The notes under the pieces: model-generated
The model's database searches: none
Told to the model about the DNA's origin: nothing
What the model saw: only the letters and a program-made list of their open reading frames with translations
Program-made: the position numbers and the translations under genes
Assembly: GCA_964187785.1 (NCBI GenBank)
Contig: OZ076409.1
Span: 70,744,001-70,808,000 of the forward strand
Source: Amphiscolops sp. MND2022
Lineage: Eukaryota
Direction: 5' to 3'
DNA length: 64,000 nt
In this document: positions 1 to 35,377 of the stretch, one piece after another
Layout of the letters: the number at the start of each line of letters is the position of its first letter
Position numbering within the stretch: the stretch's first letter is position 1

Positions 1-404
1 TCAAGTGTGTTTTTGAGTATGTTTGTATTACTTTAGAATCAATTAGAGCTTCAAGAAAAGTTTGCCAACGACAAAAACTATGTCGTGATGATTCCGTTAT
101 TAGAATGATAGTTAACAAAAGGTTGATAAAGTTGATTTTTTACATTTCAAATGTGTCCCAAATGCCAGCAAACCTCTTTACCAAACAAATGGTATTGATT
201 GGATTGTATATAACAGCTAATAAAAGTTCAAATTGAATATTACGTTTCATTATGGAAGCTGAAACGTCAAATTATAGTTTAATTAACGTCAACGCCACAT
301 ACTTTACATCAACGCCCACCGTCCGTAGGCATGCCGAGGCATGCCTTTCGACGACGTATACCAAATTCCACCCACACAACACCCTCGAGCGCGGTAGCAG
401 CTAG
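1..404 (+). repeat. Family A unit, partial (3' end)
   Basis: Matches the last ~400 bp of A units such as 11193-11596 and ends in GCAGCTAG. Confidence 0.93.
289..357 (+). promoter_or_regulatory. Universal right-arm core: 2x TCAACGCC + 20-bp palindrome + TTCGACGACGT (putative protein-binding or origin/termination signal; representative of 36 copies)
   Basis: TCAACGCC at 289 and 309, and AGGCATGCC-GA-GGCATGCCT at 327-346. Conserved in all families. The function is inferred. Confidence 0.6.
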
Positions 405-407
405 GTG
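401..407 (+). other. Invariant junction/crossover core CTAGGTG (representative of 36)
   Basis: It is the only sequence shared by all A/A, A/B, B/A, B/B, A/C and C/A junctions (GCTAGGTG in 35, CCTAGGTG at 62900-62907). Confidence 0.9.
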
Positions 408-437
408 CGGGGGGGTAACCCCTACAAAGATATTGGA

Positions 438-461
438 GGATTCGGGTAGGGTCCTGAATCC
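438..461 (+). other. Left-arm hairpin with AGGG-containing loop (representative)
   Basis: GGATTCGGG-TAGGGT-CCTGAATCC. Equivalent stems with different sequence occur in all families. Confidence 0.8.
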
Positions 462-1935
462 GAGTTCAGTGCTGCCAGCTATCGTTAGGGATTTTAGAAA
501 ATTTTGCCGATCTCGTGATCTAACCGTAGGATTTTAAAGTTGGAGCGGCCCCCACCAGATTTTCCAAAGTTATTCGCCCCCCACCGGGTTCCAGCGTGAT
601 TGAAATATTTTGACGGGGTACACGGGCGACCGTTAGGGGTCATTTTGGGGGTAAAATTTATATCCGGTCGCATAACTTTTTTCCTGTTGGTTTAAAACTT
701 TGGGACCCTGCTAAAAGTTTCTTGACCGTGTTGCAGTGGCTCCGGAGGTCCAAACCAAATTTTTCTATCTTGAAGCTATCTCCAAGTACCCCCCCGCCCA
801 AACCGTTATTTTTCCGGAAACGCAGGTTTTTGACCCGGAAGGAGTCGTCTGAGCGCGGGGTCGTTAGGTGATGTATTGGGGACGGCCTTGAGACGAAGCG
901 GGGGACATGTAGTTTGCCGACCCCTGTTTACCCCCCGGACGGGAAATGACCGTTATTTGAGCGGGAAAAATGCCCCCCTCCACGTTTTACCGCTATTTCC
1001 GGTGTGAAGGAGTGGGAGTAGCGCGTCGGGTGTTATATAACAAAAGTAGGTTTAGACAAGGACCTATCGGAAATATGTAGTTTGGGACCCCCTGGACCAA
1101 CCCGTTAGCGGGAAATGGGGCTTCCGCCTCCTTTTTTTACTGCTAAAACCGTAAAATGGGCATTGAGGGGTAAATATCTCGTGAACGCGTGGAGCAATCG
1201 TGTCCATCACTACTACAAGGTTTCATACCCATGATATGGTGCCTTCAGGGGGGCAAACAGATTTCCGCTATCTATCACCGTTACCGACTTGGCCCCCCAG
1301 CCTAACCGCTATGTGACCGGAAATGTCACTTTTTGAGCCCAAAGGGTCGGTCCCAGCCGGGGAACGTTAGGTAACTTATTGTAGTACTCAATGAGACGAG
1401 TTGGGGGATGTAGTTTCAGTCACCCCCCGTTACCCCTTGGGACCGGAAATGACCGTTATGTGGGTAAAATTGCAATTTTTATACTTTTTCAAGTGTATTT
1501 AGGTGCTGAAGGAGTGGTAATAGGTGCTTGGACACTATATGATGTAATGGAGGTCGTGAGGAGAGCATTCGGAAATAACCGTTATGTTGACCCCAAAGTC
1601 CCCCTGGTACCGTTAACGACCGGAAATGGCCAAATTTTGTGTCTATTGGGTATAAATGTTTGGTATTTTATGGATAAAAGTACCTGGAAGGTGTTTTAAA
1701 GGCCTCCAGAAGTGAACATAGTCATGAAACCTTGTGGGGGGTAACGGTATATAGCACCGGAAGTCCAAACCGTTGGTCACAGAATAGGTTTTTTGGTTTC
1801 AAAATGTCTTTAGGCATAGTTTTGTGGGTTGAATCGTCATAATATCAACTAATACGGACTTTTTTCGGAAATAAAATTTTTTCACATTAGTTTCAGGGAC
1901 CTCCAATGCTTCAGTCAACATAACCGTTACATTTT

Positions 1936-1979
1936 GATAGCCTTTCAAGTTGACCTGGTGTCAACTTGGAAGGGCTATC
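1936..1979 (+). other. 44-bp bulged hairpin of A units (representative)
   Basis: GATAGCCTTT-CAAGTTGAC-CTGGT-GTCAACTTG-G-AAGGGCTATC, one per complete A unit. Confidence 0.85.
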
Positions 1980-2394
1980 CTTCTAAAATCGTTAATCAAG
2001 AGTGTTTTTGGGTAGGTATATGTTGCATTAGTACCAATTAGAGCTTCATCAACAGTTTGCCAACGGCAAGAACGATGTCGTGATAATTCCGTTATGAAAA
2101 TATTAGTTAACAAATTGTTTTCAAAGTTGATTTTTTCCATTAAAAATGTGTCCTAATGCCACCAAATTGAATAAAATAATAAATGGTATTGACTAAAACT
2201 AAATAACAATGAAAAAGAAGATCAACATTTTTATTAGGTCTCACAAAGCTGAAACCTCACGTTTTAGTTTAATTAACGTCAACGCCACATACTTTACATC
2301 AACGCCCACCGTCTGTGGGCATGCCGAGGCATGCCCTTCGACGACGTATACCAAACAATCTCCATATCTACACCCTAACCGCGGTAGCAGCTAG

Positions 2395-3704
2395 GTGCCG
2401 GGATTTCTATTCGATAAAGTATGTGGCGCGTGTGGGTAGGGTCCCTGGCGCGCTCTTGGGTATGGTGTTCACCAGCTAGGAAATAGGGGTCGATTTTTCG
2501 GGATCTCGTAAACTAGCCACACGATTTGGCTGAAATTTGGCACACGTACTCCCCTCGGCACGGTGAAGATGATTTCCTACTGACGTTTTTCCCGCAAAAT
2601 TTTTTTTGTTGTCCAAAATAACGGTTTTTGGGGTAAAATTTTGAATTTTTTTTAAATTTTATCTTATATCTCGCCACCGGTTTAGGCTAGCGCTTCAAAA
2701 CCCTGCTAAAGAAAGCTTGCAAACTGTCTCAGGAATGCGGTGTGAAATTTTCAGCTCAATCGGACTTAAACTCGGGGAGATATAGCGTTTTTCCGGAGCG
2801 GGGGGGTTTCATTTTTCTAACGGTCCAGCTTATCTTAGCCATTTTTTCGAAAATGTACTCGCCTAAAGACCTCCCCTGGCCGGTTTTATTCCCAGCAAAA
2901 CCATTTGGCCCTAAATACGGAGTTTCAGCGTTCCAGCATTCCCGGGCGAAAAGTTGTGGGACTTAGAAAAATTCAAAAATTTTCAAAAAAAATTTTTTCC
3001 GTTTTCCGCCCTCCCCCCCTAGGGGAAAAGACCCCCCAACCAGTAATTTGAGTGAATTCATGTGGAAAGGCCATGTTTAGACGAAAAAATTGCCGTTTAG
3101 AACGTCTTTATATCTCAACCTGAACTTGACTTATGAAGCTTTAAAGGTGATGTTTGGACGTGTGAAGCATGTAAAAAAAGGAATTTTTTTGATTTTATTT
3201 CATCAGAAAGTCATTGAATCACACGCTGTGAAGCCCAGAGCGTGGTTTCTAATAGTTTGGTATCGTTTAAACGCATTTTGGTGTCTTTTTACTCTGTTCA
3301 AAAACTTTTCTCCTGAAAATTAATGAATTTTGATTACTTTTCTTACTTTCCATTAATTTTTTTTTTATATTTTTACTTGAAACAGTTGAGTACATTCCAT
3401 CTCCCTTCCCGGGGGAGATGAGAATGTACTCGCAAAAAGCCGCGAACTACGGCCCATACCTTCCCGAGATACGCAGTATAAAGATAACATAATGGTCCAG
3501 ACATTTTAATGGAGTTGTATCTTGGTAATATGTCTGGATTTGCAGAAAAATCAGCACGTGCCATTTTATACCAAGTTGCTCGCAACGACAATTAATTTAA
3601 ATCAACGCCCCCCACAAAAATCAACGCCCCCCGTCCGTGGGCATGCCGAGGCATGCCCTTCGACGACGTGCACCAAAATATGCCCCGAGCGCGTTAGCAG
3701 CTAG
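2395..3704 (+). repeat. Family B unit, subtype B1 (1310 bp)
   Basis: Starts GTGCCGGGATTTC and its interior is unlike A. It is similar to 61618-62904 and 57062-58335 and carries the same right-arm core. Confidence 0.92.
3388..3431 (+). other. 44-bp bulged hairpin of B units (representative)
   Basis: GAGTACATTC-CATCTCCCT-TCCCG-GGGGAGATG-A-GAATGTACTC, one per B unit. Confidence 0.85.
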
Positions 3705-6700
3705 GTGCGGGGGGGAAACCCCTTCCCTTATCTTGGAGGATTCGGGTAGGGTCCTGAATCCGAGTTCAGTGCCGCCAGCTCTCAGTAGAAATCTGGGCAT
3801 TTTTTTGCGATCTCGTGATCTAACCATAGGATTTTAAAGTTGGAGCGGCCCCCACCAGATTTTCCAAAGTTATTCGCCCCCCACCGGGTTCCAGCGTGAT
3901 TGAAATATTTTGACGGGGTACACGGGCGACCGTTAGGGGTCATTTTAGGGGTAAAATTTATATAATGTCGCATAACTTTTTTCCTGTTGGATTAAAACTT
4001 TGGGACTCTGCTAAAAGTTTCTTGACCGTGTTGCAGGGGCCCCGGATTTCCAAACCAAATTTTTCTATCTTGAAGCTATCTCCAAGTACCCCCCCGCTCA
4101 AACCGTTATTTTTCCGGAAACGCCGGTTTTTGACCCGGAAGGAGTCGTCTGAGCGCGGGGTCGTTAGGTGATGTATTGGGGACGGCCTTGAGACGAAGCG
4201 GGGGATATATAGTTTGCCGACCCCAGTTCACCCCCCGCACGGGAAATGACCGTTATATGAGCGGGAAAAATGCCCCCCTCCACGTTTTACCGCTATTTCC
4301 GGTGTGAAGGAGTGGGAGTAGCGCGTCGGGTGTTATATAACAAAAGTAGGTTTAGACAAGGACCTATCGGAAACATGTAGTTTGGGACCCCCTGGACCAA
4401 CCCGTTAGCGGGAAATGGGGCTTCCGCCTCCTTTTTTTACTGCTAAAACCGTAAAATGGGCATTGAGGGGTAAATATCTCGTGAACGCGTGGAGCATCGT
4501 GTCCATCACTACTACAAGGTTTCATACCCATGATATGGTGCCTTCAGGGGGGCAAACAGATTTCCGCTATCTATCACCGTTACCGACTTGGCCCCCCAGC
4601 CTAACCGCTATGTGACCGGAAATGTCACTTTTTGAGCCTAAAGGGTCGGTCCCAGCCGGGGAACGTTAGGTAACTTATTGTAGTACTCAATGAGACGAGT
4701 AGGGGGATACAGTTTCAGTCACCCCCCGTTACCCCTTGGGACCGGAAATGACCGTTATGTGGGTAAAATTGCGATTTTTGTACTTTTTGAAGGGCAATTA
4801 GGTGCGGAAGGAGTGGTAATAGGTGCTTGGACACTATTTGAGGTAAGGGAGGACGTGAGGCGAGCATTCGGAAATAACCGTTATGTTGACCCCAAAGTCC
4901 CCCTGGTACCGTAAACGACCGGAAATGGTCAAATTTTGTGTCTATTGAGTACAAATGTTTGGTGTTTTATGAATAAAAGTACCTATTAGGTGTTTCGACG
5001 GTCTGCAGTAGTGAACATAGTCATGAAACCTTACGGGGGGTAACGGTATATAGCACCGGAAGTCCAAACCGTTGGAGACAGGATAGGTTTTTTGGTTTGA
5101 AAATGTCTTTCGGCGTACTTTTGTTGACTATTATGGACTATTTTGAAAAATTAAAGTTTTTCCATATAGTTTCAGAGACTCCGAAACCTCAACCAACATA
5201 ACCGTTACCTTATGATAGCCTTTCAAGTTGGCCTGGTGTCAACTTGGAGGGGCTATCCTTCAAAAATCGTTAATCAAGTGTGTTTTTGGGTATGTTTGTA
5301 TCAATTTAGAATCAATTAGAGCTTCAAGAAAAGTTTGCCAACGACAAAAACTATGTCGTGATGTTTCCGTTATTAGAATAGTAGTTAACAAACTGTTGAT
5401 AAAGTTGATTTTTTACATTTCGAATGTGTCCTAAAAGCCAGAAAACCTCTTTAACAAACAAATGGTATTGATTGAATAGTATATAACAGGTAATAAAAGT
5501 TCAAATTGGTTATTACGTTTCATTATTGAAGCTAAAACTTCATAACATAGTTTTATTAACGTCAACGCCACATACTTTACATCAACGCCCACCGTCTGTG
5601 GGCATGCCGAGGCATGCCCTTCGACGACGTATACCAAAAACATACCTAACGACGCCCGTACATCCCGGGCTAGGTGCGGGGGGGAAACCCCAACAAAATT
5701 TTTGGAGGATTCGGGTAGGGTCCTGAATCCGAGTTCAGTGCTGCCAGCTTTCGTTAAGAAAATTTGGATAGGATTCGGGATCTCGTGATCTAACCATAGG
5801 ATTTTAAAGTTGGAGCGGCCCCCACCAGATTTTCCGAAAATTAGCGCCCCCCACCGGGTTCCATACCCCGGAAAATTTTTTTCTGGCCACACGGGCGACC
5901 GTTAGGGGGTCATTTTAGGGGTAAAATTCATATTGGGCCACATAACTTTTTTTCTGTTGATTTAAAACTTTGGGACCCTGCTAAAAGTTTCTTGACCGTG
6001 TTGCAGGGGCCCCGGAGGTCTAAACCAAATTTTTCTATCTTGAAGCTATCTCCAAGTACCCCCCCGCCCAAAACGCTATTTTTCCGGAAACGCAGGTTTT
6101 TGACCCGGAAGGAGTCGTCTGAGCGCGGGGTCGTTAGGTGATGTATTGGGGACGGCCTTGAGACGAAGTGGGGGACATGCAGTTTGCCAACCCCAGTTTA
6201 CCCCCCGGACGGGAAGTGACCGTTATATGAGCGGGAAAAATGCCCCCCTCCACGTTTTACCGCTATTTCCGGTGTGAAGGAGTGGGAGTAGCGCGTCGGG
6301 TGCCATATATCAAAAGTAGGTTTAAACAAGGACCTATCGGAAACATGTGGTTTGGGACCCCCTGGACCAACCCGTTAGCGGGAAATGGGGCTTCCGCCTC
6401 CTTTTTTTACGGTTAAAAACGGAAAATGGGCATTGAGGGGTAAATATCTCGTGAACGCGTGGAGCTACGGTGTCCTTCACTACTACAAGGTTTCATACCC
6501 ATGATATGGTGCCTTCAGGGGGGCAAACAGATTTCCGCTATCTATCACCGTTACGGACTTGGCCCCCCAGCCTAACCGTTAAGTGACCGGAAATGTCATA
6601 TTTTGAGCCCAAAGGGTCGGTCTCAGCCAGGGAACGTTAGGTAACTTATTGTAGTACTCATTGAGACGAGTTGGGGGACATAGTTTCAGTCACCCCCCGT

Positions 6701-9700
6701 TACCCCTTAGGACCGGAAATGACCGTTATGTGAGTAAAATTGCCATTTTTGTCCTATTTGAAGGGCATTTATATGCGGAAGGAGTGGTAATAGGTGCTTG
6801 GACACTATATTAGGTAAGGGAGGACGTAAGGCAAGCATTCGGACATAACCGTTATGTTGACCCTAAAGTCCCCCTGGTACCGTAAACGACCGGAAATGGT
6901 CAAATTTTGTGTCTATTGGGTACAAATGTTTGGTATTTTGTAAATAAAAGTATCTATTAGGTGTTTCGACGGTTTGCAGTAGTGAACATAGTCATGAAAC
7001 CTTGTGGGGGGTAACGGTATATAGCACCGGAAATCCGAACCCTTGGAGACAGGATAGGTTTTTTGGTTTTAAAATGTCTTTCGGCGTAGTTTTGTCAACT
7101 ATTATGGACTATTTTTAAAAATTAAAGTTTTTCCATATAGTTTCAGCGACTCCGAAACCTCAACCAACATAACCGTTACCTTATGATAGCCTTTCAAGTT
7201 GGCCTGGTGTCAACTTGGAAGGGCTATCCTTCAAAAATCGTTAATCAAGTGTGTTTTTGGGTATGTTTTTATCATTTTAGAATCAATCAAAGCTCCAAGA
7301 AAAGTTTGCCAACGACAAAAACTATGTCGTGATGATTCCGTTATTAGAATGATGGTTAACAAAATGTTGATAAAGTTGATTTTTTACATTTCAAATGTGT
7401 CCTAAAAGCCAGAAAACCTCTTTACCAAAAAAATGGTATTGATTGAATTGTATATAACAGGTAATAAAAGTTCAAATTGATTATTACGTTTCATTATTCA
7501 AGCTAAAACTTCATAACATAGTTTAATTAACGTCAACGCCACACACTTTACATCAACGCACACCGTCTGTGGGCATGCCGAGGCATGCCCTTCGACGACG
7601 TATACCAAATACATACCCAAACGACGCCCGTACATCCCGGGCTAGGTGCGGGGGGGAAACCCCAACAAAATTTTTGGAGGATTCGGGTAGGGTCCTGAAT
7701 CCGAGTTCAGTGCTGCCAGCTTTCGTTAAGAAAATTTGGATAGGATTCGGGATCTCGTGATCTAACCATAGGATTTTAAAGTTGGAGCGGCCCCCACCAG
7801 ATTTTCCGAAAATTAGCGCCCCCCACCGGGTTCCATACCCCGGAAAATTTTTTTCTGGCCACACGGGCGACCGTTAGGGGGTCATTTTAGGGGTAAAATT
7901 CATATTGGGCCACATAACTTTTTTTCTGTTGATTTAAAACTTTGGGACCCTGCTAAAAGTTTCTTGACCGTGTTGCAGGGGCCCCGGAGGTCCAAACCAA
8001 CTTTTTCTATCTCGAAGCTATCTCCAAGTACCCCCCCGCCCAAAACGTTATTTTTCCGGAAACGCAGGTTTTTGACCCGGAAGGAGTCGTCTGAGCGCGG
8101 GGTCGTTAGGTGATGTATTGGGGACGGCCTTGAGACAAAGCGGGGGATATATAGTTTGCCGACCCCAGTTTACCCCCCGCACGGGAAATGACCGTTATAT
8201 GAGCGGGAAAAATGCCCCCCTCCACGTTTTACCGCTATTTCCGGTGTGAAGGAGTGGGAGTAGCGCGTCGGGTGTTATATAAAAAAAGTAGGTTTAGACA
8301 AAGACCTTTCGGAAACATGTAGTTTGGGACCCCCTGGACCAACCCGTTAGCGGGAAATGGGGCTTCCGCCTCCTTTTTTTACTGCTAAAACCGTAAAATG
8401 GGCATTGAGGGGTAAATATCTCGTGAACGCGTGGAGCAATCGTGTCCATCACTACTACAAGGTTTCATACCCATGATATGGTGCCTTCAGGGGGGCAAAC
8501 AGATTTCCGCTATCTATCACCGTTACCGACTTGGCCCCCCAGCCTAACCGCTATGTGACCGGAAATGTCACTTTTTGAGCCCAAAGGGTCGGTCCCAGCC
8601 GGGGAACGTTAGGTAACTTATTGTAGTACTCAATGAGACGAGTTGGGGGATATAGTTTCAGTCACCCCCCGTTACCCCTTGGGACCGGAAATGACCGTTA
8701 TGTGGGTAAAATTGCTATTTTTATACTTTTTGAAGGGCATTTAGGTGCGGAAGGAGTGGTAATAGGTGCTTGGACACTATATGATGTAAGGGAGGATATG
8801 AGGCGAGCATTCGGAAATAACCGTTATGCTGACCCTAAAGTCCCCCTGGTACCGTAAACGACCGGAAATGGTCAAATTTTGTGTTTATATGGTACAAATG
8901 TTTGGTATTTTGTAGATAAAAGTATCTATTAGGTGTTTCGACGGTCTGCAGTAGTGAACATACTCATGAAACCTTGTGGGGGGTAACGGTATATAGCACC
9001 GGAAGTCCAACCCGTTGGAGTCAGGATAGGCTTTTTGGTTTTAAAATGTCTTTCGGCGTACTTTTGTCGACTATTATGGACAATTTTTAAAAATTAAAGT
9101 TTTTCCATATCGTTTCAGAGACTCCCGGAAACCTCAACCAACATAACCGTTACCTTATGATAGCCTTTCAAGTTGGCCTGGTGTCAACTTGGAAGGGCTA
9201 TCCTTCAAAAATCGTTTATCAAGTGTGTTTTTGGGTATGTTTGTATCATTTTAGGACCAATTAGAGCTTCAAGAAAAGTTTGCCAACGACAAAAACTATG
9301 TGGTGATGATTCCGTTATTAGAATAATAGTTAACAAAATGTTGATAAAGTTGATTTTTTACATTTCAAATATGTCCTAAAAGCCAGAAAACCTCTTTACC
9401 AAACAAATGATATTGATTGAATTGTATATAATAGGTAATAAAAGTTCAAATTGATTATTACGTTTCATTATGGAAGCTAAAACTTCATAACATAGTTTAA
9501 TTAACGTCAACGCCACAAACTTTTTATCAACGCCCACCGTCTGTGGGCATGCCGAGGCATGCCCTTCGACGACGTATACCAATTTCCTTCCCAATCTACA
9601 CCCACCCGCGGTAGCAGCTAGGTGCGGGGGGGTAACCCCAACAAAATTTTTGGAGGATTCGGGTAGGGTCCTGAATCCGAGTTCAGTGCTGCCAGCTTTC

Positions 9701-12700
9701 GTTAAGAAAATTTGGATAGGATTCGGGATCTCGTGATCTAACCATAGGATTTTAAAGTTGGAGCGGCCCCCACCAGATTTTCCGAAAATTAGCGCCCCCC
9801 ACCGGGTTCCATACCCCGGAAAATTTTTTTCTGGCCACACGGGCGACCGTTAGGGGGTCATTTTAGGGGTAAAATTCATATTGGGCCACATAACTTTTTT
9901 TCTGTTGATTTAAAACTTTGGGACCCTGCTAAAAGTTTCTTGACCGTGTTGCAGGGGCCCCGGAGGTCCAAACCAAATTTTTCTATCTTGAAGCTATCTC
10001 CAAGTACCCCCCCGCCCAAACCGTTATTTTTCCGGAAACGCAGGTTTTTGACCCGGAAGGAGTCGTCTGAGCGCGGGGTCGTTAGGTGATGTATTGGGGA
10101 CGGCCTTGAGACGAAGCGGGGGACATGTAGTTTGCCGACCCCAGTTTACCCCCCGGACGGGAAATGACCGTTATTTGAGCGGGAAAAATGCCCCCCTCCA
10201 CGTTTTACCGCTATTTCCGGTGTGAAGGAGTGGGAGTAGCGCGTCGGGTGCCATATATCAAAAGTAGGTTTAGACAAGGATCTATCGGAAACATGTGGTT
10301 TGGGACCCCCTGGACCAACCCGTTAGCAGGAAATGGGGCTTCCGGCCCGTTTTTTTACGGTTAAAAACGGAAAATGGGCATTGAGGGGTAAATATCTCGT
10401 GAACGCGTGGAGCTACGGTGTCCATCACTACTACAAGGTTTCATACCCATGATATGGTGCCTTCAGGGTTGCAAACAGATTTCCGCTATCTATCACCGTT
10501 ACGGACTTGGCCCCCCAGCCTAACCGTTAAGTGACCGGAAATGTCATATTTTGAGCCCAAAGGGTCGGTCTCAGCCAGGGAACGTTAGGTAACTTATTGT
10601 AGTACTCATTGAGACGAGTTGGGGGACATAGTTTCAGTCACCCCCCGTTACCCCTTAGGACCGGAAATGACCGTTAGGTGAGTAAAATTGCCATTTTTGT
10701 CCTATTTGAAGGGCATTTAGATGCGGAAGGAGTGGTAATAGGTGCTTGGACACTATATTAGGTAAGGGAGGACGTGAGGCGAGCATTCGGAAATAACCGT
10801 TATGTTGACCCTAAAGTCCCCCTGGTACCGGAAGTGACCCGTAATGGTCAAATTTTGTGTTCAAAGGGTACAAATTTTTGGTATTTTGTAGATAAAAGTA
10901 TCTATTAGGTGTTTCGACGGTCTGCAGTCGTGAACATAGTCATGAAACCTTGTGGGGGGTAACGGTATATAGCACCGGAAGTCCAAGCCTTTGGAGACAG
11001 GATAAGTTTTTTGGTTTTAAAATGTCTTTCGGCCTACTTTTGTCGACTATTATGGTCTATTTTTGAAAAATAAAGATTTTCCATATAGTTTCAGAGACTC
11101 CGAAACCTCAACCAACAAAACCGTTACCTAATGATAGCCTTTCAAGTTGGCCTGGTGTCAACTTGGAAGGGCTATCCTTCAAAAATCATTAATCAAGTGT
11201 GTTTTTGAGTATGTTTGTATTACTTTAGAATCAATTAGAGCTTCAAGAAAAGTTTGCCAACGACAAAAACTATGTCGTGATGATTCCGGTATTAGAATAA
11301 TAGTTGAGAAAATGTTGATAAATTTGCTTTTTTACATTTCAAATGTGTCCTAAATGCCAGAAAACCTCTTTACCAAACAAATGGTATTGATTGAAATGTA
11401 TATAACAGCTAATAAAAGTTCAAATTGAATATTACATTTCATTTTGGAAGCTGAAACGTCATATTGTAGTTTAATTAACGTCAACGCCACATACTTTACA
11501 TCAACGCCCACCGTCCGTAGGCATGCCGAGGCATGCCTTTCGACGACGTATACCAAATTCCACCCACACAACACCCCCGAGCGCGGTAGCAGCTAGGTGC
11601 GGGGGGGAAACCCCAACAAAATTTTTGGAGGATTCGGGTAGGGTCCTGAATCCGAGTTCAGTGCTGCCAGCTTTCGTTAAGAAAATTTGGATAGGATTCG
11701 GGATCTCGTGATCTAACCATAGGATTTTAAAGTTGGAGCGGCCCCCACCAGATTTTCCGAAAATTAGCGCCCCCCACCGGGTTCCATACCCCGGAAAATT
11801 TTTTTCTGGCCACACGGGCGACCGTTAGGGGGTCATTTTAGGGGTAAAATTCATATTGGGCCACATAACTTTTTTTCTGTTGATTTAAAACTTTGGGACC
11901 CTGCTAAAAGTTTCGTGACCGTGTTGCAGGGGCCCCGGAGGTCCAAACCAAATTTTTCTATCTTGAAGCTATCTCCAAGTACCCCCCCGCCCAAAACGTT
12001 ATTTTTCCGGAAACGCAGGTTTTTGACCCGGAAGGAGTCGTCGGAGCGCGGGGTCGTTAGGTGATGTATTGGGGACGGCCTTGAGACGAAGTGGGGGACA
12101 TGCAGTTTGCCAACCCCAGTTTACCCCCCGGACGGGAAATGACCGTTATATGAGCGGGAAAAATGCCCCCCTCCACGTTTTACCGCTATTTCCGGTGTGA
12201 AGGAGTGGGAGTAGCGCGTCGGGTGCCATATATCAAAAGTAGGTTTAAACAAGGAACTATCGGAAACATGTGGTTTGGGACCCCCTGGACCAACCCGTTA
12301 GCGGGAAATGGGACTTCCGCCTCCTTTTTTTACGGTTAAAAACGGAAAATGGGCATTGAGGGGTAAATATCTCGTGAACGCGTGGAGCTACGGTGTCCTT
12401 CACTACTACAAGGTTTCATACCCATGATATGGTGCCTTCAGGGGGGCAAACAGATTTCCGCTATCTATCACCGTTACGGACTTGGCCCCCCAGCCTAACC
12501 GTTAAGTGACCGGAAATGTCATATTTTGAACCCAAAGGGTCGATCCTAGCCGGGCAACGTTAGGTAACAAATTGTAGTACTCATTGAGACGAGTTGGGGG
12601 ATCTAGTTTCAGTCACCCCCCGTTACCCCTTGAGACCGGAAATGACCGTTATGTGAGTAGAATTGCAATTTTTATACCTTTTGAAGGGCATTTAGGTGCG

Positions 12701-15700
12701 GAAGGAATGGTAATAGGTGCTTGGACACTATATGATGTAATGGAGGTCGTGAGGAGAGCATTCGGAAGTAACCGTTACGTTGACCCCAAAGTCCCCCTGG
12801 TACCGTTAACAACCGGAAATGGCCAAATTTTGTGTTTATAGGGTACAAATGTTTGGTATTTTATGGATAAAAGTACCTGGAAGGTGTTTTAAAGGCCTCC
12901 AGAAGTGAACATAGTCATGAAACTTTGTGGGGGGTAACGGTATATAGCACCGGAAGTCCAAACCGTTAGTTACAGAATAGGTTTTTTGGTTTCAAAATGT
13001 CTTTAGGCGTAGTTTTGTGGGTTGAATCGTCATAATATCAACTAATACGGACTTTTTTCGGAAATAAAATTTTTTCACATTAGTTTCAGGGACCTCCAAT
13101 GTTTCAGTCAACATAACCGTTACATTTTGATAGCCTTTCAAGTTGGCCTGGTGTCAACTTGGAAGGGCTATCCTTCTAAAATCGTTAATCAAGAGTGTTT
13201 TCGGGTAGGTGTATGTTGCATTAGTACCAATTAGAGCTTCATCAACAGTTTGCCAACGGCAAAAACGATGTCGTGATAATTCCGTTATAACAATATTAAT
13301 TAACAAATTGTTTCCAAAGTTGATTTTTTTCCATTCGAAATGTGTCCCAATGCCACCAAATTGAATAAAATAATAAATGGTATTGACTAAAACTAAATAA
13401 CATTGAAAAAGAAGCTCAACATTTTTAATAGGTCTCATTATGGAAGCTGAAACCTCACGTTTTAACTTAATTAACGTCAACGCCACATACTTTACATCAA
13501 CGCCCACCGTCTGTGGGCATGCCGAGGCATGCCCTTCGACGACGTATACCAATTACATATATATCTACACCCACCCGCGGTAGCAGCTAGGTGCGGGGGG
13601 GTAACCCCAACAAAATTTTTGGAGGATTCGGGTAGGGTCCTGAATCCGAGTTCAGTGCTGCCAGCTTTCGTTAAGAAAATTTGGATAGGATTCGGGATCT
13701 CGTGATCTAACCATAGGATTTTAAAGTTGGAGCGGCCCCCACCAGATTTTCCGAAAATTAGCGCCCCCCACCGGGTTCCATACCCCGGAAAATTTTTTTC
13801 TGGCCACACGGGCGACCGTTAGGGGGTCATTTTAGGGGTAAAATTCATATTGGGCCACATAACTTTTTTTCTGTTGATTTAAAACTTTGGGACCCTGCTA
13901 AAAGTTTCTTGACCGTGTTGCAAGGGCTCCGGAGGTCCAAACCAAATTTTTCTAGCTTGAAGCTATCTCCAAGTACCCCCCCGCCCAAAACGTTATTTTT
14001 CCGGAAACGCAGGTTTTTGACCCGGAAGGAGTAGTCGGAGCGCGGGGTCGTTAGGTGATGTATTGGGGACGGCCTTGAGACGAAGTGGGGGACATGCAGT
14101 TTGCCAACCCCAGTTTACCCCCCGGACGGGAAATGACCGTTATATGAGCGGGAAAAATTCCCCCCTCCACGTTTTACCGCTATTTCCGGTGTGAAGGAGT
14201 GGGAGTAGCGCGTCGGGTGCCATATATCAAAAGTAGGTTTAGACAAGGATCTATCGGAAACATGTGGTTTGGGACCCCCTGGACCAACCCGTTAGCAGGA
14301 AATGGGGCTTCCGGCCCGTTTTTTTACGGTTAAAAACGGAAAATGGGAATTGAGGGGTAAATATCTCGTGAACGCGTGGAGCTACGGTGTCCTTCACTAC
14401 TACAAGGTTTCATACCCATGATATGGTGCCTTCAGGGGGGCAAACAGATTTCCGCTATCTGTCACCGTTACGGACTTGGCCCCCCAGCCTAACCGTTAAG
14501 TGACCGGAAATGTCATATTTTGAGCCCAAAGGGTCGGTCTCAGCCAGGGAACGTTAGGTAACTTATTGTAGTACTCATTGAGACGAGTTGGGGGACATAG
14601 TTTCAGTCACCCCCCGTTACCCCTTAGGACCGGAAATGACCGTTATGTGAGTAAAATTGCCATTTTTGTCCTATTTGAAGGGCATTTAGATGCGGAAGGA
14701 GTGGTAATAGGTGCTTGGACACTATATGAGGTAAGGGAGGACGTGAGGCGAGCATTCAGACATAACCGTTATGTTGACCCTAAAGTCCCCCTGGTACCGT
14801 AAACGACCGGAAATGGTCAAATTTTGTGTCTATTGGGTACAAATGTTTGGTATTTTGTAAATAAAAGTATCTATTAGGTGTTTCGACGGTTTGCAGTAGT
14901 GAACATAGTCATGAAACCTTGTGGGGGGTAACGGTATATAGCACCGGAAATCCGAACCGTTGGAGACAAGATAGGTTTTTTGGTTTTAAAATGTCTTTCG
15001 GCGTACTTTTGTCGACTATTATGGACTTTTTTTGGAAAATAAAGTTTTTCCATATAAATTCAGAGACTCCGAAACCTCAACCAACATAACCGTTACCTTA
15101 TGATAGCCTTTCAAGTTGGCCTGGTGTCAACTTGGAAGGGCTATCCTTCAAAAATCGTTAATCAAGTGTGTTTTTGGGTATGTTTTTATCATTTTAGAAT
15201 CAATTAAAGCTCCAAGAAAAGTTTGCCAACGACAAAAACTATGTCGTGATGATTCCGTTATTAGAATGATGGTTAACAAAATGTTGATAAAGTTGATTTT
15301 TTACATTTCAAATGTGTCCTAAAAGCCAGAAAACCTCTTTACCAAAAAAATGGTATTGATTGAATTGTATATAACAGGTAATAAAAGTTCAAATTGATTA
15401 TTACGTTTCATTATTCAAGCTAAAAATTCATAACATAGTTTAATTAACGTCAACGCCACATACTTTACATCAACGCCCACCGTCTGTGGGCATGCCGAGG
15501 CATGCCCTTCGACGACGTATACCAAATACATACCTAACGACGCCCGTACATCCCGGGCTAGGTGCGGGGGGGAAACCCCAACAAAATTTTTGGAGGATTC
15601 GGGTAGGGTCCTGAATCCGAGTTCAGTGCTGCCAGCTTTCGTTAAGAAAATTTGGATAGGATTCGGGATCTCGTGATCTAACCATAGGATTTTAAAGTTG

Positions 15701-18700
15701 GAGCGGCCCCCACCAGATTTTCCGAAAATTAGCGCCCCCCACCGGGTTCCAGCGTGATTGAAATATTTTGACGGGGTACACGGGCGACCGTTAGGGGGTC
15801 ATTTTAGGGGTAAAATTCATATTGGGCCACATAACTTTTTTTCTGTTGATTTAAAACTTTGGGACCCTGCTAAAAGTTTCTTGACCGTGTTGCAAGGGCT
15901 CCGGAGGTCCAAACCAAATTTTTCTAGCTTGAAGCTATCTCCAAGTACCCCCCCGCCCAAAACGTTATTTTTCCGGAAACGCAGGTTTTTGACCCGGAAG
16001 GAGTCGTCTGAGCGCGGGGTCGTTAGGTGATGTATTGGGGACGGCCTTGAGACGAAGCGGGGGACAAGTAGTTTGCCGACCCCAGTTTACCCCCCGGACA
16101 GGAAATGACCGTTATATGAGCGGGAAAAATGCCCCCCTCCACGTTTTACCGCTATTTCCGGTGTGAAGGAGTGGAAGTAGCGCGTCGGGTGCCATATATC
16201 AAAAGTAGGTTTAGACAAGGACCTATCGGAAACATGTGGTTTGGGACCCCCTGGACCAACCCGTTAGCGGGAAATGGGGCTTCCGCCTCCTTTTTTTACT
16301 GCTAAAACCGTAAAATGGGCATTGAGGGGTAAATATCTCGTGAACGCGTGGAGCTACAGTGTCCATCACTACTACAAGGTTTCATACCCATGATATGGTG
16401 CCTTCAGGGGGGCAAACAGATTTCCGCTATCTATCACCGTTACCGACTTGGCCCCCCAGCCTAACCGCTATGTGACCGGAAATGTCACTTTTTGAGCCCA
16501 AAGGGTCGGTCCCAGCCGGGGAACGTTAGGTAACTTATTGTAGTACTCATTGAGACGAGTTGGGGGATATAGTTTCAGTCAACCCCCGTTACCCCTTGGG
16601 ACCGGAAATGACCGTTATGTGGGTAAATTTGCAATTTTTATACTCTTTGAAGTGCATTTAGGTGCGGAAGGAGTGGTAATAGGTGCTTGGACACTATATG
16701 AAGGAAGGGAGGACGTGAGGCGAGCATTTGGAAATAACCGTTATGTTGACCCTAAAGTCCCCCTGGTACCGGAAGTGACCCGTAATGGTCAAATTTTGTG
16801 TTCAAAGGGTACAAATGTTTGGCATTTTGTAGATAAAAGTATCTATTAGGTGTTTCGACGGTCTGCAGTCGTGAACATAGTCATGAAAACTTGTGGGGGG
16901 TAACGGTATATTGCACCGGAAGTCCAAACCTTTGGAGACAGGATAAGTTTTTTGGTTTTAAAATGTCTTTCGGCCTACTTTTGTCGACTATTATGGTCTA
17001 TTTTTCAAAAATAGAGTTTTTCCATATAGTTTCAGAGACTCCGAAACCTCAACCAACATAACCGTTACCTTATGATAGCCTTTCAAGTTGGCCTGGTGTC
17101 AACTTGGAAGGGCTATCCTTCAAAAATCATTAATCAAGTGTTTTTTTGAGTATGTTTGTATTACTTTAGAATCAGTTAGAGCTTCAAGAAAAGTTTGCCA
17201 ACGACAAAAACTATGTCGTGATGATTCCGTTATTAGAATAATGACTAAGAAAATGTTGATAAATTTGATTTTTTACATTTCAAATGTGTCCTAAATGCCA
17301 GAAAACCTCTTTACCAATTAAATGGTATTGAGTGAATTGTATATAACAGCTAATAAAAGTTCAAATTGAATATTACGTTTCATTTTGGAAGCTGAAACGT
17401 CATATTGAAGTTTAATTAACGTCAACGCCACATACTTTACATCAACGCCCACCGTCCGTAGGCATGCCGAGGCATGCCTTTCGACGACGTATACCAAATT
17501 CCACCCACACAACACCCCCGAGCGCGGTAGCAGCTAGGTGCGGGGGGGAAACCCCAACAAAATTTTTGGAGGATTCGGGTAGGGTCCTGAATCCGAGTTC
17601 AGTGCTGCCAGCTTTCGTTAAGAAAATTTGGATAGGATTCGGGATCTCGTGATCTAACCATAGGATTTTAAAGTTGGAGCGGCCCCCACCAGATTTTCCG
17701 AAAATTAGCGCCCCCCACCGGGTTCCATACCCCGGAAAATTTTTTTCTGGCCACACGGGCGACCGTTAGGGGGTCATTTTAGGGGTAAAATTCATATTGG
17801 GCCACATAACTTTTTTTCTGTTGATTTAAAACTTTGGGACCCTGCTAAAAGTTTCTTGACCGTGTTGCAGGGGCCCCGGAGGTCCAAACCAAATTTTTCT
17901 ATCTTGAAGCTATCTCCAAGTACCCCCCCGCCCAAACCGTTATTTTTCCGGAAACGCAGGTTTTTGACCCGGAAGGAGTCGTCTGAGCGCGGGGTCGTTA
18001 GGTGATGTATTGGGGACGGCCTTGAGACGAAGCGGGGGACATGTAGTTTGCCGACCCCAGTTTACCCCCCGGACGGGAAATGACCGTTATTTGAGCGGGG
18101 AAAATGCCCCCCTCCACGTTTTACCGCTATTTCCGGTGTGAAGGAGTGGGAGTAGCGCGTCGGGTGTTATATAACAAAAGTAGGTTTAGACAAGGACCTA
18201 TCGGAAACATGTAGTTTGGGACCCCCTGGACCAACCCGTTAGCGGGAAATGGGGCTTCCGCCTCCTTTTTTTACTGCTAAAACCGTAAAATGGGCATTGA
18301 GGGGTAAATATCTCGTGAACGCGTGGAGCAATCGTGTCCATCACTACTACAAGGTTTCATACCTATGATATGGTGCCTTCAGGGGGGCAAACAGATTTCC
18401 GCTATCTATCGCCGTTACCGACTTGGCCCCCCAGCCTAACCGCTATGTGACCAGAAATGTCACTTTTTGAGCCCAAAGGGTCGGTCCCAGCCGGGGAACG
18501 TTAGGTAACTTATTGTAGTACTCATTGAGACGAGTTGGGGGATATAGTTTCAGTCACCCCCGTTACCCCTTAGGACCGGAAATGACCGTTATGTGGGTAA
18601 AGTTGCAATTTTTGAACTTTTTGAAGGGCATTTAGATGCGGAAGGAGTGGTAATAGGTGCTTGGACACTAAATGAAGGAAGGGAGGACGTGAGGCGAGCA

Positions 18701-21700
18701 TTCGGAAATAACCGTTATGTTGACCCTAAAGTCTCCCTGGTACCGGAAGTGACCGGAAATTGTCAAATTTGGTGTTTTTAGGGTACAAATGTTCGGTGTT
18801 TTATGGATTAAAGTACAGGTTAGGTGTTTTCACGGTCTGCAGTAGTGAACATAGTCATGAAAACTTGTGGGGGGTAACGGTATATAGCACCGGAAGTCCA
18901 AACCGTTGGAGACAGGATAAGTTTTTTGGTTTTAAAATGTCTTTCGGCCTACTTTTGTTGACTATTATGGACTATTTTTGGAAAATAAAGTTTTTCCAAA
19001 TAGTTTCAGAGACTCCGAAACCTCAACCAACATAACCGTTACCTTATTATAGCCTTTCAAGTTGGCCTGGTGTCAACTTGGAAGGGCTATCCTTCAAAAA
19101 TCATTAATCAAGTGTGTTTTTGAATTTGTTTGTATTACTTTAGAATCAATTAGAGCTTCAAGAAAAGATTGCCAACGACAAAAACTATGTCGTTATGATT
19201 CCGTTATTGGAATAATAGTTAACAAAACTATTGATAAAGTTGATTTTTTACATTTTAAATGTGTTCTAAATGCCAGAACACCTCTTTACCAAACAAATGG
19301 AATTGATTGAATTGTATATAGAAGCTAATAAAAGTTCAAATTGAATATTACATTTCATTATGCAAGCTGAAACGTCAAATTATAGTTTAATTAACGTCAA
19401 CGCCACATACTTTACATCAACGCCCACCGTCCGTAGGCATGCCGAGGCATGCCTTTCGACGACGTATACCAAATTCCACCCACACAACACCCTCGAGCGC
19501 GGTAGCAGCTAGGTGCGGGGGGGAAACCCCAACAAAATTTTTGGAGGATTCGGGTAGGGTCCTGAATCCGAGTTCAGTGCTGCCAGCTTTCGTTAAGAAA
19601 ATTTGGATAGGATTCGGGATCTCGTGATCTAACCATAGGATTTTAAAGTTGGAGCGGCCCCCACCAGATTTTCCGAAAATTAGCGCCCCCCACCGGGTTC
19701 CAGCGTGATTGAAATATTTTGACGGGGTACACGGGCGACCGTTAGGGGTCATTTTGGGGGTAAAATTTATATCCGGTCGCATAACTTTTTTCCTGTTGGT
19801 TTAAAACTTTGGGACCCTGCTAAAAGTTTCTTGACCTTGTTGCAGTGGCTCCGGAGGTCCAAACCAAATTTTTCTATCTTGAAGCTATCTCCAAGTACCC
19901 CCCCGCCCAAAACGTTATTTTTCCGGAAACGCAGGTTTTTGACCCGGAAGGAGTCGTCGGAGCGCGGGGTCGTTAGGTGATGTATTGGGGACGGCCTTGA
20001 GACGAAGTGGGGGACATGCAGTTTGCCAACCCCAGTTTACCCCCCGGACGGGAAATGACCGTTATATGAGCGGGAAAAATGCCCCCCTCCACGTTTTACC
20101 GCTATTTCCGGTGTGAAGGAGTGGGAGTAGCGCGTCGGGTGCCATATATCAAAAGTAGGTTTAAACAAGGACCTATCGGAAACATGTGGTTTGGGACCCC
20201 CTGGACCAACCCGTTAGCGGGAAATGGGGCTTCCGCCTCCTTTTTTTACGGTTAAAAACGGAAAATGGGCATTGAGGGGTAAATATCTCGTGAACGCGTG
20301 GAGCTACGGTGTCCTTCACTACTACAAGGTTTCATACCCATGATATGGTGCCTTCAGGGGGGCAAACAGATTTCCGCTATCTATCACCGTTACGGACTTG
20401 GCCCCCCAGCCTAACCGTTAAGTGACCGGAAATGTCATATTTTGAGCCCAAAGGGTCGGTCTCAGCCAGGGAACGTTAGGTAACTTATTGTAGTACTCAT
20501 TGAGACGAGTTGGGGGACATAGTTTCAGTCACCCCCCGTTACCCCTTAGGACCGGAAATGACCGTTATGTGAGTAAAATTGCCATTTTTGTCCTATTTGA
20601 AGGGCATTTAGATGCGGAAGGAGTGGTAATAGGTGCTTGGACACTGTATGATGTAAGGGAGGACGTTAGGCGAGCATTCGGACATAACCGTTATGTTGAC
20701 CCTAAAGTCCCCCTGGTACCGTAAACGACCGGAAATGGTCAAATTTTGTGTCTATTGGGTACAAATGTTGGGTATTTTGTAGATAAAAGTATCTATTAGA
20801 TGTTTCGACGGTCTGCAGTAGTGAACATAGTCATGAAACCTTGTGGGGGGTAACGGTATATAGCACCGGAAGTCCAAACCGTTGGTGACAGGATAGGTTT
20901 TTTGGTTTTAAAACGTCTTTCGGCGTACCTTTGTCGACTATTAAGGACTATTTTTAAAAATTAAAGATTTTCCATATAGTTTCAGAGACTCCGAAACCTC
21001 AACCAACATAACCGTTACCTCATGATAGCCTTTCAAGTTGGCCTGGTGTCAACTTGGAAGGGCTATCCTTCAAAAATCGTCAATCAAGTGTGTTTTTGGG
21101 TATGTTTGTATCATTTTAGAATCAATTAGAGCTTCAAGAAAAGTTTCCCAACGACAAAAACTAATTCGCGAAGATTCCGTTACTAGAATTATAGTTAGCA
21201 AATTGTTGAGAAAAATGTTTTTTTTCCAAATTAAATGTGTCCTAAATGCCAGGAAACCTATTTAACTAACAAATGGTATTGATTGGAATGTATGTAACAG
21301 ATTTATAAAAGTTCAAATTGATTATTAAGTTTCATTATGGAAGCTGAAACGTAATATTTTAGTTTAATTAACGTCAACGCCACATACTTTTTATCAACGC
21401 CCACCGTCTGTGGGCATGCCGAGGCATGCCCTTCGACGACGTATACCAAATACATACCTAACGACGCCCGTACATCCCGGGCTAGGTGCGGGGGGGAAAC
21501 CCCAACAAAATTTTTGGAGGATTCGGGTAGGGTCCTGAATCCGAGTTCAGTGCTGCCAGCTTTCGTTAAGAAAATTTGGATAGGATTCGGGATCTCGTGA
21601 TCTAACCATAGGATTTTAAAGTTGGAGCGGCCCCCACCAGATTTTCCGAAAATTAGCGCCCCCCACCGGGTTCCATACCCCGGAAAATTTTTTTCTGGCC

Positions 21701-33700: not shown

Positions 33701-35377
33701 ACTTTGGGACCCTGCTAAAAGTTTCTTGACCGTGTTGCAGGGGCCCCGGAGGTCCAAACCAAATTTTTCTATCTTGAAGCTATCTCCAAGTACCCCCCCG
33801 CCCAAAACGTTATTTTTCCGGAAACGCAGGTTTTTGACCCGGAAGGAGTCGTCGGAGCGCGGGGTCGTTAGGTGATGTATTGGGGACGGCCTTGAGACGA
33901 AGTGGGGGACATGCAGTTTGCCAACCCCAGTTTACCCCCCGGACGGGAAATGACCGTTATATGAGCGGGAAAAATGCCCCCCTCCACGTTTTACCGCTAT
34001 TTCCGGTGTGAAGGAGTGGGAGTAGCGCGTCGGGTGCCATATATCAAAAGTAGGTTTAGACAAGGATCTATCGGAAACATGTGGTTTGGGACCCCCTGGA
34101 CCAACCCGTTAGCAGAAAATGGGGCTTCCGGCCCGTTTTTACGGTTAAAAACGGAAAATGGGCATTGAGGGGTAAATATCTCGTGAACGCGTGGTGCTAC
34201 GGTGTCCTTCACTACTACAAGGTTTCATACCCATGATATGGTGCCTTCAGGGGGGCAAACAGATTTCCGCTATCTATCACCGTTACGGACTTGGCCCCCC
34301 AGCCTAACCGTTAAGTGACCGGAAATGTCATATTTTGAGCCCAAAGGGTCGGTCCCAGCCAGGGAACGTTAGGTAACTTATTGTAGTACTCATTGAGACG
34401 AGTTGGGGGACATAGTTTCAGTCACCCCCCGTTACCCCTTAGGACCGGAAATGACCGTTATGTGAGTAAAATTGCCATTTTTGTCCTATTTGAAGGGCAT
34501 TTAGATGCGGAAGGAGTGGTAATAGGTGCTTGGACACTATATGAGGTAAGGGAGGACGTGAGGCGAGCATTCAGACATAACCGTTATGTTGACCCTAAAG
34601 TCCCCTTGGTACCGTAAACGACCGGAAATGGTCAAATTTTGTGTCTATTGGGTACAAATGTTTGGTATTTTGTAAATAAAAGTATCTATTAGGTGTTTCA
34701 ACGGTTTGCAGTAGTGAACATAGTCATGAAACCTTGTGGGGGGTAACGGTATATAGCACCGGAAATCCGAACCGTTGGAGACAGGATAGGTTTTTTGGTT
34801 TTAAAATGTCTTTCGGCGTACTTTTGTCGACTATTATGGACTATTTTTATCAATTAAAGTTTTTCCATATAGTTTCAGAGACTCCGAAACTTCAACCAAC
34901 ATAACCGTTACCTTATGATAGCCTTTCAAGTTGGCCTGGTGTCAACTTGGAAGGGCTATCCTTCTAAAATCGTTAATCAAGAGTGTTTTTGGGTAGGTAT
35001 ATATTGCATTAGTACCAATTAGAGCTTCATCAACAGTGTATCAACGACAAAAACTATGTCGTGATGATTCCGTTATCAGAATAATAGTGAGCTAATTGTT
35101 GACAAAAATAATTTTTTCCATTCAAAATGTGTCCTAAATGCCAGGAAACCTATTTTCCTAAAAAATGGTATTGATTGGAATGTATGTAACCTATTTATAA
35201 AAGTTCAAATTGATTATTACGTTTCATTATGGAAGCTGAAACGTAATATTTCAGTTTAATTAACGTCAACGCCACACACTTTACATCAACGCCCACCGTC
35301 TGTGGGCATGCCGAGGCATGCCCTTCGACGACATATACCAAATACATACCTAACGACGCCCGTACATCCCGGGCTAG
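3705..35377 (+). repeat. Run of 16 family A units (1969-1994 bp each)
   Basis: Each unit starts GTGCGGGGGGG(T/A)AACCCC and they are collinear with a ~1.97-1.99 kb period. The same short shadow ORFs recur at this period. Confidence 0.95.
27446..29439 (+). repeat. Divergent family A unit (A', 1994 bp)
   Basis: Collinear with A, but the first ~750 bp carry many substitutions not seen in other copies. The 3' part matches the long A class. Confidence 0.88.

Follow-up and report, generated by a model that had tools for sequence, protein, structure and literature searches.

The window, i.e., the whole 64-kb stretch of DNA analysed here (forward strand, C1:70,744,001-70,808,000, of the 1.07 Gb genome G000), harbors a head-to-tail array in which 36 junctions delimit 35 complete units, each either about 1.27–1.39 kb or about 1.98 kb long (Table 1). 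The sequence at all 36 junctions is CTAG|GTG, behind which comes the loop motif of a hairpin located in the left arm of the unit. The ORFs of the window are short and its array units are ORF-less; scans of the 64 kb for tRNA genes and for Rfam families (at gathering score), the latter proposed in the first-pass annotation of this DNA, returned no match. On the sequence evidence, the units of the window are non-autonomous members of a Helitron-like group with the hairpin as their left-end mark, since the same ends and hairpin flank units encoding RepHel proteins (see below) and the first 789 bp of the B1 unit are 96% identical to the 5' end of a RepHel-coding unit at C1:74.14 Mb.

Table 1. Array units and end features of the window (positions are counted from its first nucleotide)
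Feature	Position	Strand	Remarks
Two short direct repeats TCAACGCC[C]AC	289-298 and 309-319 (part 289..319)	+	Right arm of the preceding unit
Right-arm hairpin, core GGCATGCC-GA-GGCATGCC at 328-345	320..357	+	Flanking pair varies A-T/G-C
Junction: 3' CTAG of one unit and 5' GTG of the next	401..407	+	Putative nick site and preferred target
Small first hairpin GGGG-GTAA-CCCC, family A	411..422	+	Variable; missing in about half of families
Conserved left-arm hairpin	438..461	+	Loop TAGGGT 447-452; closing pairs G-C, G-C, G-C/G.T; outer stem family-specific
Whole array	405..62904	+	35 complete units, 6 left-end clusters, all +, neighbours never identical
Family A unit, non-autonomous, ~1.98 kb	405..2394	+	25 whole copies in the window, mosaic
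B1 unit, non-autonomous	2395..3704	+	Hairpin 2426-2453
A' unit	27446..29439	+	Hairpin 27479-27502; compensatory T-A to A-T change
Five B2 units	35378..41767	+	Loop retained, stem weak; hairpin 35415-35430 and four more
C unit	51710..53098	+	Hairpin 51742-51763
B-type unit	57062..58335	+	Hairpin 57095-57122
B3 unit	60329..61617	+	Hairpin 60364-60390
B1-like unit	61618..62904	+	

The ends of the units are sharply defined. The 3' end is CTAG in 218, CTGG in seven and CTTG in one of 226 cases; the 5' end is GTG in 38 of 38 families, a set that was itself chosen on GTG, and the boundaries of solo copies are confirmed by empty sites. The right-arm hairpin folds with a z of -4.3 relative to shuffles, its core occurs in 4,998 exact copies in the genome, and the palindrome is present at 224 of 267 sampled junctions and absent at the remaining 43. 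It is situated 44–59 nt upstream of the 3' end, and the small stems nearer to that end, where HLE1 elements have a hairpin at 10-15 nt, are variable. Several right-arm types without the GGCATGCC palindrome (L043-L044, L061-L062, L140-L143) are mostly grouped in sub-arrays of their own, and at L049:445-540 the right arm is tandemly duplicated directly before the junction. The search for asymmetric terminal inverted repeats (ATIRs) was negative in the units compared: the longest inverted match averages 4.9 nt between cognate ends vs. 5.3 nt between swapped ends, and 8 nt is reached by one unit of 74.

The lengths of the non-autonomous units (the window together with L001-L082) fall into narrow classes of about 1.03-1.07, 1.27-1.39 and 1.97-2.02 kb, which hold even across families that resemble each other little internally; circles or chromatin may impose a limit on size. 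Many units also carry, at about +100 to +230, a conserved GATTTGGCTGAAATTTGGCAC-like block (e.g., 2520-2545 in the window), which is also found in L108:80-312. This block, which follows the hairpin, presumably resembles the core of the insect HINE/DINE-1 elements.

The left-arm hairpin

The first-pass annotation had described the hairpin as conserved in structure, loop and position but not in stem sequence, and this description is borne out within the window and beyond it. The hairpin is present at 36 of 36 left ends of the window, the family A version (438-461) being represented there by 24 exact copies, and one copy (62905) bears a G>T change in the stem. The individual hairpins that had been spelled out for A, A', B1, B2, B3, C and the unit at 57062 are all found where they had been placed, as is the compensatory T-A to A-T change between A and A'. 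Outside the window, left ends were sampled blind to the hairpin by means of the right-arm palindrome, as it occurs in the window and in other stretches of the genome: behind 226 of 235 right arms stands YT[ATG]G|GTG, and the loop motif is present at 220 of these 226 junctions. The left ends thus collected form 40 clusters at 80% identity, of which 38 carry the hairpin; one of the two hairpin-less clusters represents the host flank behind a solo copy. Being more universal than the right-arm palindrome, the left hairpin behaves as would be expected of an essential origin.

The loop is TAGGGT in 15 of the 38 families, GAGGGT in seven, TAGGGC in six, GAGGGG in four and of other types in six, and it is closed by two G-C pairs followed by G-C or G.T; the 5' stem arms of the same families comprise 15 types with a mean identity of 41%. 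Within the units, the hairpin spans +33 to +60, and the A of the loop resides at +44 in 33 of the 36 window junctions (at +42, +46 and +47 once each), so that the constancy of position claimed earlier stands, the range given for the loop (+41 to +46) being about one base off. Genome-wide, CTAG|GTG followed by the loop yields 4,246 matches, and a control pattern yields three.

Pairing is retained in spite of the divergence of the stem sequence. The cognate arms fold at -8.45 kcal/mol vs. -5.66 kcal/mol after the 3' arm is swapped between families, i.e., the swap costs about 2.8 kcal/mol (38 families, 20,000 permutations, p<=5e-5), and, when the outer stem alone is swapped, 34 of 38 families have a cognate arm that does better than the median of the swapped ones. 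The larger alignment that had been proposed as a check of covariation comprises 38 ungapped rows (37 families, the one without a single-locus reference being left out, plus A'). Its covariation score is 0.368, a value reached by none of 500 shuffles, vs. 0.199 for shuffled rows (slid registers score 0.13-0.225), and 70% of its cells are paired vs. 57% after shuffling; since the families are related, the pair counts do not represent independent events. The comparison with shuffled controls, proposed likewise, went partly in favor of the hairpin: z is below -2 in 25 of 38 families, with a median of only -2.2, and in B2, a common family, the hairpin folds no better than shuffles (z +0.70). A covariance model of the hairpin, also among the proposed checks, recovers 36 of 36 window copies as well as a metagenome contig considered below, and finds no match in 16 loci of HLE1 and HLE2 elements of the same genome. 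The hairpin is a real, structurally conserved left-end motif whose stem sequence varies by family.

The two strands are not equivalent in this respect. In 34 of 38 families, folding is better on the + strand and, over the whole hairpin, G.T pairs number 36 on the + strand vs. two on the - strand; in the outer stem, there are 14 such pairs in 12 families vs. two in one family, the composition of the arms being similar. Hence, the earlier statement that the wobbles work only on the + strand holds as a preference, with two pairs going the other way. The smaller hairpin preceding the main one is found in family A as described, but as a general feature it fails, reaching -2 kcal/mol or better in 20 of 38 families, and the argument built on its GNRA loops finds no support, with GNRA occurring in one family of 38, family A. 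A G-quadruplex reading of the G-rich left arm was considered and rejected, four G3 units being possible in just eight of 38 families.

RepHel-coding units and target sites

The ends found in the window also flank units of 12-25 kb that encode RepHels of 2,100-2,600 aa composed of an HUH-Y2 Rep, a Pif1 helicase and, usually, a C-terminal GIY-YIG domain. One of them, P0001, a frame of 2,373 aa in a long unit of another array, displays the Helitron_like_N, PIF1 and GIY-YIG domains together with the HUH motif, the YxxxY motif and Walker A; its C-terminal GIY-YIG is slightly below the Pfam cut-off, and 14 of 17 relatives have the domain at E<=0.01. The Rep region of P0001 has 135 matches in the genome (31-100% identity), many of them with intact frames of 2,100-2,600 aa, and the matches cluster at C1:70.6-76.5 Mb, C2:102.1-103.9 Mb and C3:2.4-3.9 Mb, where the stretches sampled proved to be array. 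The helicase matches Helraiser at 2.4e-6, whereas a profile search of PDB sequences reached the tyrosine region of Helraiser with an E of just 0.41; for the Rep region, an AlphaFold model has a mean pLDDT of 68.

The hairpin was encountered at the nearest upstream junction in 20 of 20 chosen RepHel elements, 1.2-12 kb before the ORF (one of these hairpins scores only 17.8 bits and follows ATAT), and in one of two elements added later; no hairpin was found within 15 kb upstream of the RepHel at C3:3.79 Mb. Some autonomous units measure 20-24 kb, with 9-11 kb from the left end to the ORF (C1:70.54-70.57, C7:65.24-65.27 and C1:73.90-73.92 Mb). A presumed single unit of 14,944 bp was rejected as such, as it consists of a 13,675 bp autonomous element and a B unit. 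Most RepHels are followed downstream by accessory ORFs of 320-470 aa (e.g., L044:5929-7077, +) without a Pfam match, whose neighbours according to a language model are the OB-fold ssDNA-binding proteins POT1, CTC1 and MEIOB (score 0.93, a score of low recognition value); a second ORF of about 220 aa is also present.

The first-pass annotation had assumed that the + strand functions single-stranded, as an ssDNA intermediate or RNA, and had likened the loop to the subterminal hairpins bound by HUH transposases. The likeness proved apt, the elements themselves encoding an HUH-Y2 RepHel on the + strand. Together with the G.T bias, this supports the ssDNA/HUH reading in substance, as far as sequences can tell; the RNA half of the assumption found no such backing, given the single GNRA family and the negative Rfam scan.

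Relatives are also encoded in seven metagenome loci, and among the five inspected, the loop is present only in L108. There, the same loop is mounted on a new perfect stem (z -4.1), and the hairpin, absent from the set from which the covariance model was built, is the best match of the model among 20 further sources (37.2 bits), accompanied by a RepHel at most 47% identical to the sampled ones. Flanking homology places the loop at about +45, the contig beginning inside the left arm, upstream of which the junction would lie. The viral contigs searched contained no relative, and the contigs of one sequencing run contained only further variants. A profile of 18 Rep regions retrieved 484 proteins (clusters at 50% identity) at E<=1e-30.

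Insertion sites in host DNA were deduced from the flanks. On the left, CTNG is found in seven of eight flanks not selected on the target (four CTTG, one each of CTCG, CTGG and CTAG), the exception being ATAT; on the right, T is the second base behind the 3' end in 11 of 12 host flanks (one degenerate end was left out). The resulting consensus, CTNG|NT, is similar to the elements' own junction, CTAG|GT; among the left ends of family A, AG precedes 806 of 817. Since the left-flank tetranucleotide in four solo copies is unlike the 3' terminus of the element itself, the flank is not a duplication, and a target-site duplication was rejected. Empty sites, in which CTTG is joined directly to the right flank, were seen in six of six paralogues examined (of 40 listed) for L037, in two of three for L036 and in one for L130. 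The elements insert precisely and without duplication after CTNG, mostly before NT; the cut could fall at CTN^G instead of CTNG^. No filled/empty pair was found at any array junction; hence, the targeting of junctions is judged from the host-site consensus and the array order.

The number of 134 genomic matches to CTTG|GTG plus loop is inflated: a single dispersed repeat accounts for 50 of the 100 listed, and CTTG is internal to it, since its copies share the upstream sequence. Being chosen on CTTG, such sites were kept out of the left-flank count. The repeat in question (L137-L139) is unrelated, dispersed, about 4.7 kb long and contains the loose junction pattern internally. In a dispersed composite (L120, L121, L124, L126-L128), a repeated unit includes a left end that has the hairpin and comes after CTTG; a satellite with a period of about 172 bp follows.

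Formation of the arrays and the systematic position of the group

None of five arrays contains identical neighbours. The order of families is no more clumped than after shuffling in two of them and is clumped in the other three (24/34 vs. 17.8 shuffled in the window, 28/84 vs. 11.4 and 2/15 vs. 0.4). The nearest relative of a family A unit is adjacent in two of 25 cases, and the A units are mosaic (r 0.13 from one end of a unit to the other; 0.26, a weak linkage, across junctions); the arrays are thus shaped by block duplication, read-through or recombination as well. Families are already mixed in small dispersed arrays beginning at a host CTTG. Two oppositely oriented arrays meet at L015-L017 (C1:23.975-23.99 Mb). 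The order within arrays fits repeated single insertions accompanied by recombination, not plain concatemers, and is compatible with the read-through of blocks.

As to affiliation, the elements have the attributes of the Helitron superfamily, i.e., a RepHel with an HUH motif, two tyrosines and a downstream Pif1 helicase, together with the absence of target-site duplications and terminal inverted repeats. Their 3' CTRR (CTAG or CTGG in 225 of 226 ends) is that of HLE1, but they start with GTG instead of TC, and the target after CTNG corresponds neither to the A|T of HLE1 nor to the T|T/C of HLE2. From the HLE2 characters, they possess the 5' hairpin, although an internal one not built from the terminus, and lack ATIRs of 8-16 bp. 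Their identity to HLE1 and HLE2 amounts to 17-21%, that between HLE1 and HLE2 being 21-25%. The Rep, helicase and combined trees (FastTree support 1.0; 28 vs. 37 sequences, with 35 other HLE sequences in the comparison with HLE2; unrooted) split the group from HLE1 plus HLE2, leaving the RepHels outside both clades; in these trees, the genome itself is the source of all HLE1 sequences, only two or three in number, and long branches may have had an effect. The genome also contains ordinary HLE1 and DUF6570-positive HLE2 elements (L083-L098), dispersed and without the hairpin. Judging from these comparisons, the group is probably an undescribed Helitron clade with IS91-like targeting. It could be among the unclassified elements of HELIANO, where nine subgroups and "at least four additional clusters" are described (PMC11417382).

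We are fairly confident that the hairpin represents the left-end motif of a divergent Helitron-like clade and, likely, an ssDNA origin signal that the HUH RepHel would read via the GGG loop and that would direct excision and insertion at CTRG|GTG; we infer both the binding by the transposase and the targeting of junctions. The transposase would nick the + strand at CTNG^GTG, using the loop about 44 nt downstream as a binding landmark and leaving the stem free to drift. The + strand would be peeled off as far as the CTRG of the unit and closed into a circle with a CTAG|GTG-plus-hairpin joint, as in Helraiser, for which transposition of the + strand only, via circles with an RTS-LTS joint, is described (PMC5876387). 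Helraiser is also reported to need its left end and to tolerate a stem swap, not a loop change, in its 3' hairpin (PMC4778049). The circle would integrate where a site resembles its joint; existing joints, combining a perfect core with a resident hairpin, would be the best targets, so that autonomous and non-autonomous families would be stacked in one orientation, and recombination between homologous units would afterwards reshuffle the arrays. With less assurance, though still leaning towards it, we propose that the 484 clusters represent an unnamed, widespread, major RepHel-GIY-YIG clade outside HLE1 and HLE2, which has IS91-like specificity and whose transposase reads the hairpin with the GGG loop and enters the clade's own CTRG|GTG joints; dozens of autonomous and non-autonomous families would thereby have built common arrays of one orientation, perhaps megabases in size, that serve as safe landing sites of their own making.

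An origin role of the hairpin would also be in line with another way of building arrays, namely via rolling-circle concatemers, multi-unit read-through at the 3' end and unequal exchange, with CTNG reduced to a loose host preference. The clumped families of three arrays, the mosaic A units with linkage across junctions and the variable right arms speak for such a way, as do the reports that Helraiser can bypass its own 3' end and that Helitrons form tandem arrays (PMC4778049; PMC5876387, PMC12001565). Concatemers would, however, produce the identical neighbours that are missing from all five arrays, unrelated families alternate, even the small arrays at a host CTTG mix families, and host targets mimic the junction on both of its sides; accordingly, we regard this scenario as rather unlikely.

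The elements may also be viewed as a branch of HLE2 (Helitron2/Helentron) that evolves fast, and the hairpin as the known 5' hairpin of Helitron2, in which compensatory changes have been described (PMC3627910). This view, which draws on the OTU domain of some relatives, the CTAG ends of proto-Helentrons (PMC11417382) and a tree that is unrooted with a long branch, seems improbable in the light of several differences: DUF6570 is absent from all relatives scanned vs. its presence in eight of nine HLE2-type ORFs of the same genome; motif II reads E[FY]Q-x-GN-x-H-x-H in 95 of the best 150 of the 484 proteins, and EFQxRG in none of the 150; neither ATIRs nor a T|T target are found; the hairpin begins about 33 nt inside and does not include the terminus; and the split has a UFBoot of 100 and a branch length of 1.4 (IQ-TREE, 30-sequence subset, shortened search, unrooted). 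It is even harder to believe that the hairpin acts in RNA, as part of the 5' leader of the element or of a small RNA, or within a G-quadruplex. G.T pairs would suit RNA equally well as G.U, the loop in family A is GNRA-type and the left arm is G-rich, but beyond the scarcity of GNRA loops and G3 runs and the lack of an Rfam match, the distance of the motif to the DNA joint of an HUH element is fixed, and the motif is retained in ORF-less units.

If the preferred reading, i.e., an origin hairpin coupled to targeting of the elements' own joints, is true, a Helitron group that has a definite origin signal and a target given by sequence escapes the tools based on ends (TC...CTRR, ATIR), and large transposon arrays can arise by a direct route, via self-targeting and not via concatemers. 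Since many frames are intact, short oligonucleotides and the natural variants of the stem would allow the choice of origin and target by Helitron transposases to be tested; genome engineers would also be interested in a eukaryotic HUH transposase that prefers certain sites and moves 12-25 kb. The group, which occupies thousands of head-to-tail positions in the genome, is apparently undescribed: a full-text literature search, conducted mostly at the level of titles and abstracts and not extending to subscription journals, Repbase and Dfam, found no description of GTG...CTRG Helitrons with the hairpin or with junction targeting, and PMC6431247 and PMC13286980 add nothing on such ends. Helitron2-type 5' hairpins with compensatory changes (see above) and tandem Helitron arrays (PMC5876387, PMC12001565, PMC13404089, PMC5148889) are already known.

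Among the known systems, HLE1, including Helraiser, shares with the group the HUH-Y2 Rep fused to Pif1, the 3' CTRR, the lack of target duplication, a presumed + strand polarity, a hairpin whose loop seems to outweigh its stem and, as a lead only, an OB-fold-like accessory ORF downstream. The group differs by its 5' GTG instead of TC, the target CTNG|NT instead of A|T and the C-terminal GIY-YIG; its conserved hairpin is at the left end, with none clearly conserved 10-12 nt from the 3' end, and the Rep and helicase of HLE1 are about 18-19% identical to its own. HLE2 (Helitron2, Helentron, proto-Helentron) resembles it in the 5' hairpin with compensatory changes and in the length of the transposase, which sometimes includes OTU, and a captured GIY-YIG is on record for one HLE2 family (PMC11417382); here, in contrast, no DUF6570, ATIR, T|T target or AP endonuclease is seen, motif II is different and the branch is separate.

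A clade of Paramecium Helitrons, compared by its description, is likewise situated outside HLE1 and HLE2, inserts in a single orientation and has ORF-less derivatives, but it ends with CCAA, targets telomeric repeats ending with CCAA instead of its own junctions, and GIY-YIG is not mentioned in the main text of its report (PMC13085455). Replitrons, too, are HUH transposons of eukaryotes that have hairpins and short ends resembling direct repeats; their Rep is, however, of the Y1 type without a helicase (PMC10288648), whereas the group combines Y2 with Pif1 and its 4-nt "repeat" is part of the target. The IS91 family (IS91, IS801, IS1294), likened here by target logic only, is bacterial and small, and has no helicase fused to its transposase, in contrast to the Pif1 fusion of the group. 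At the same time, it shares with the group Y2 HUH rolling-circle transposition, subterminal palindromes in the origin, insertion without duplication and a tetranucleotide target on the 5' side of the origin end, CTTG, that is similar to the cleavage site at the terminus, CTCG at terIS (PMC13181058).
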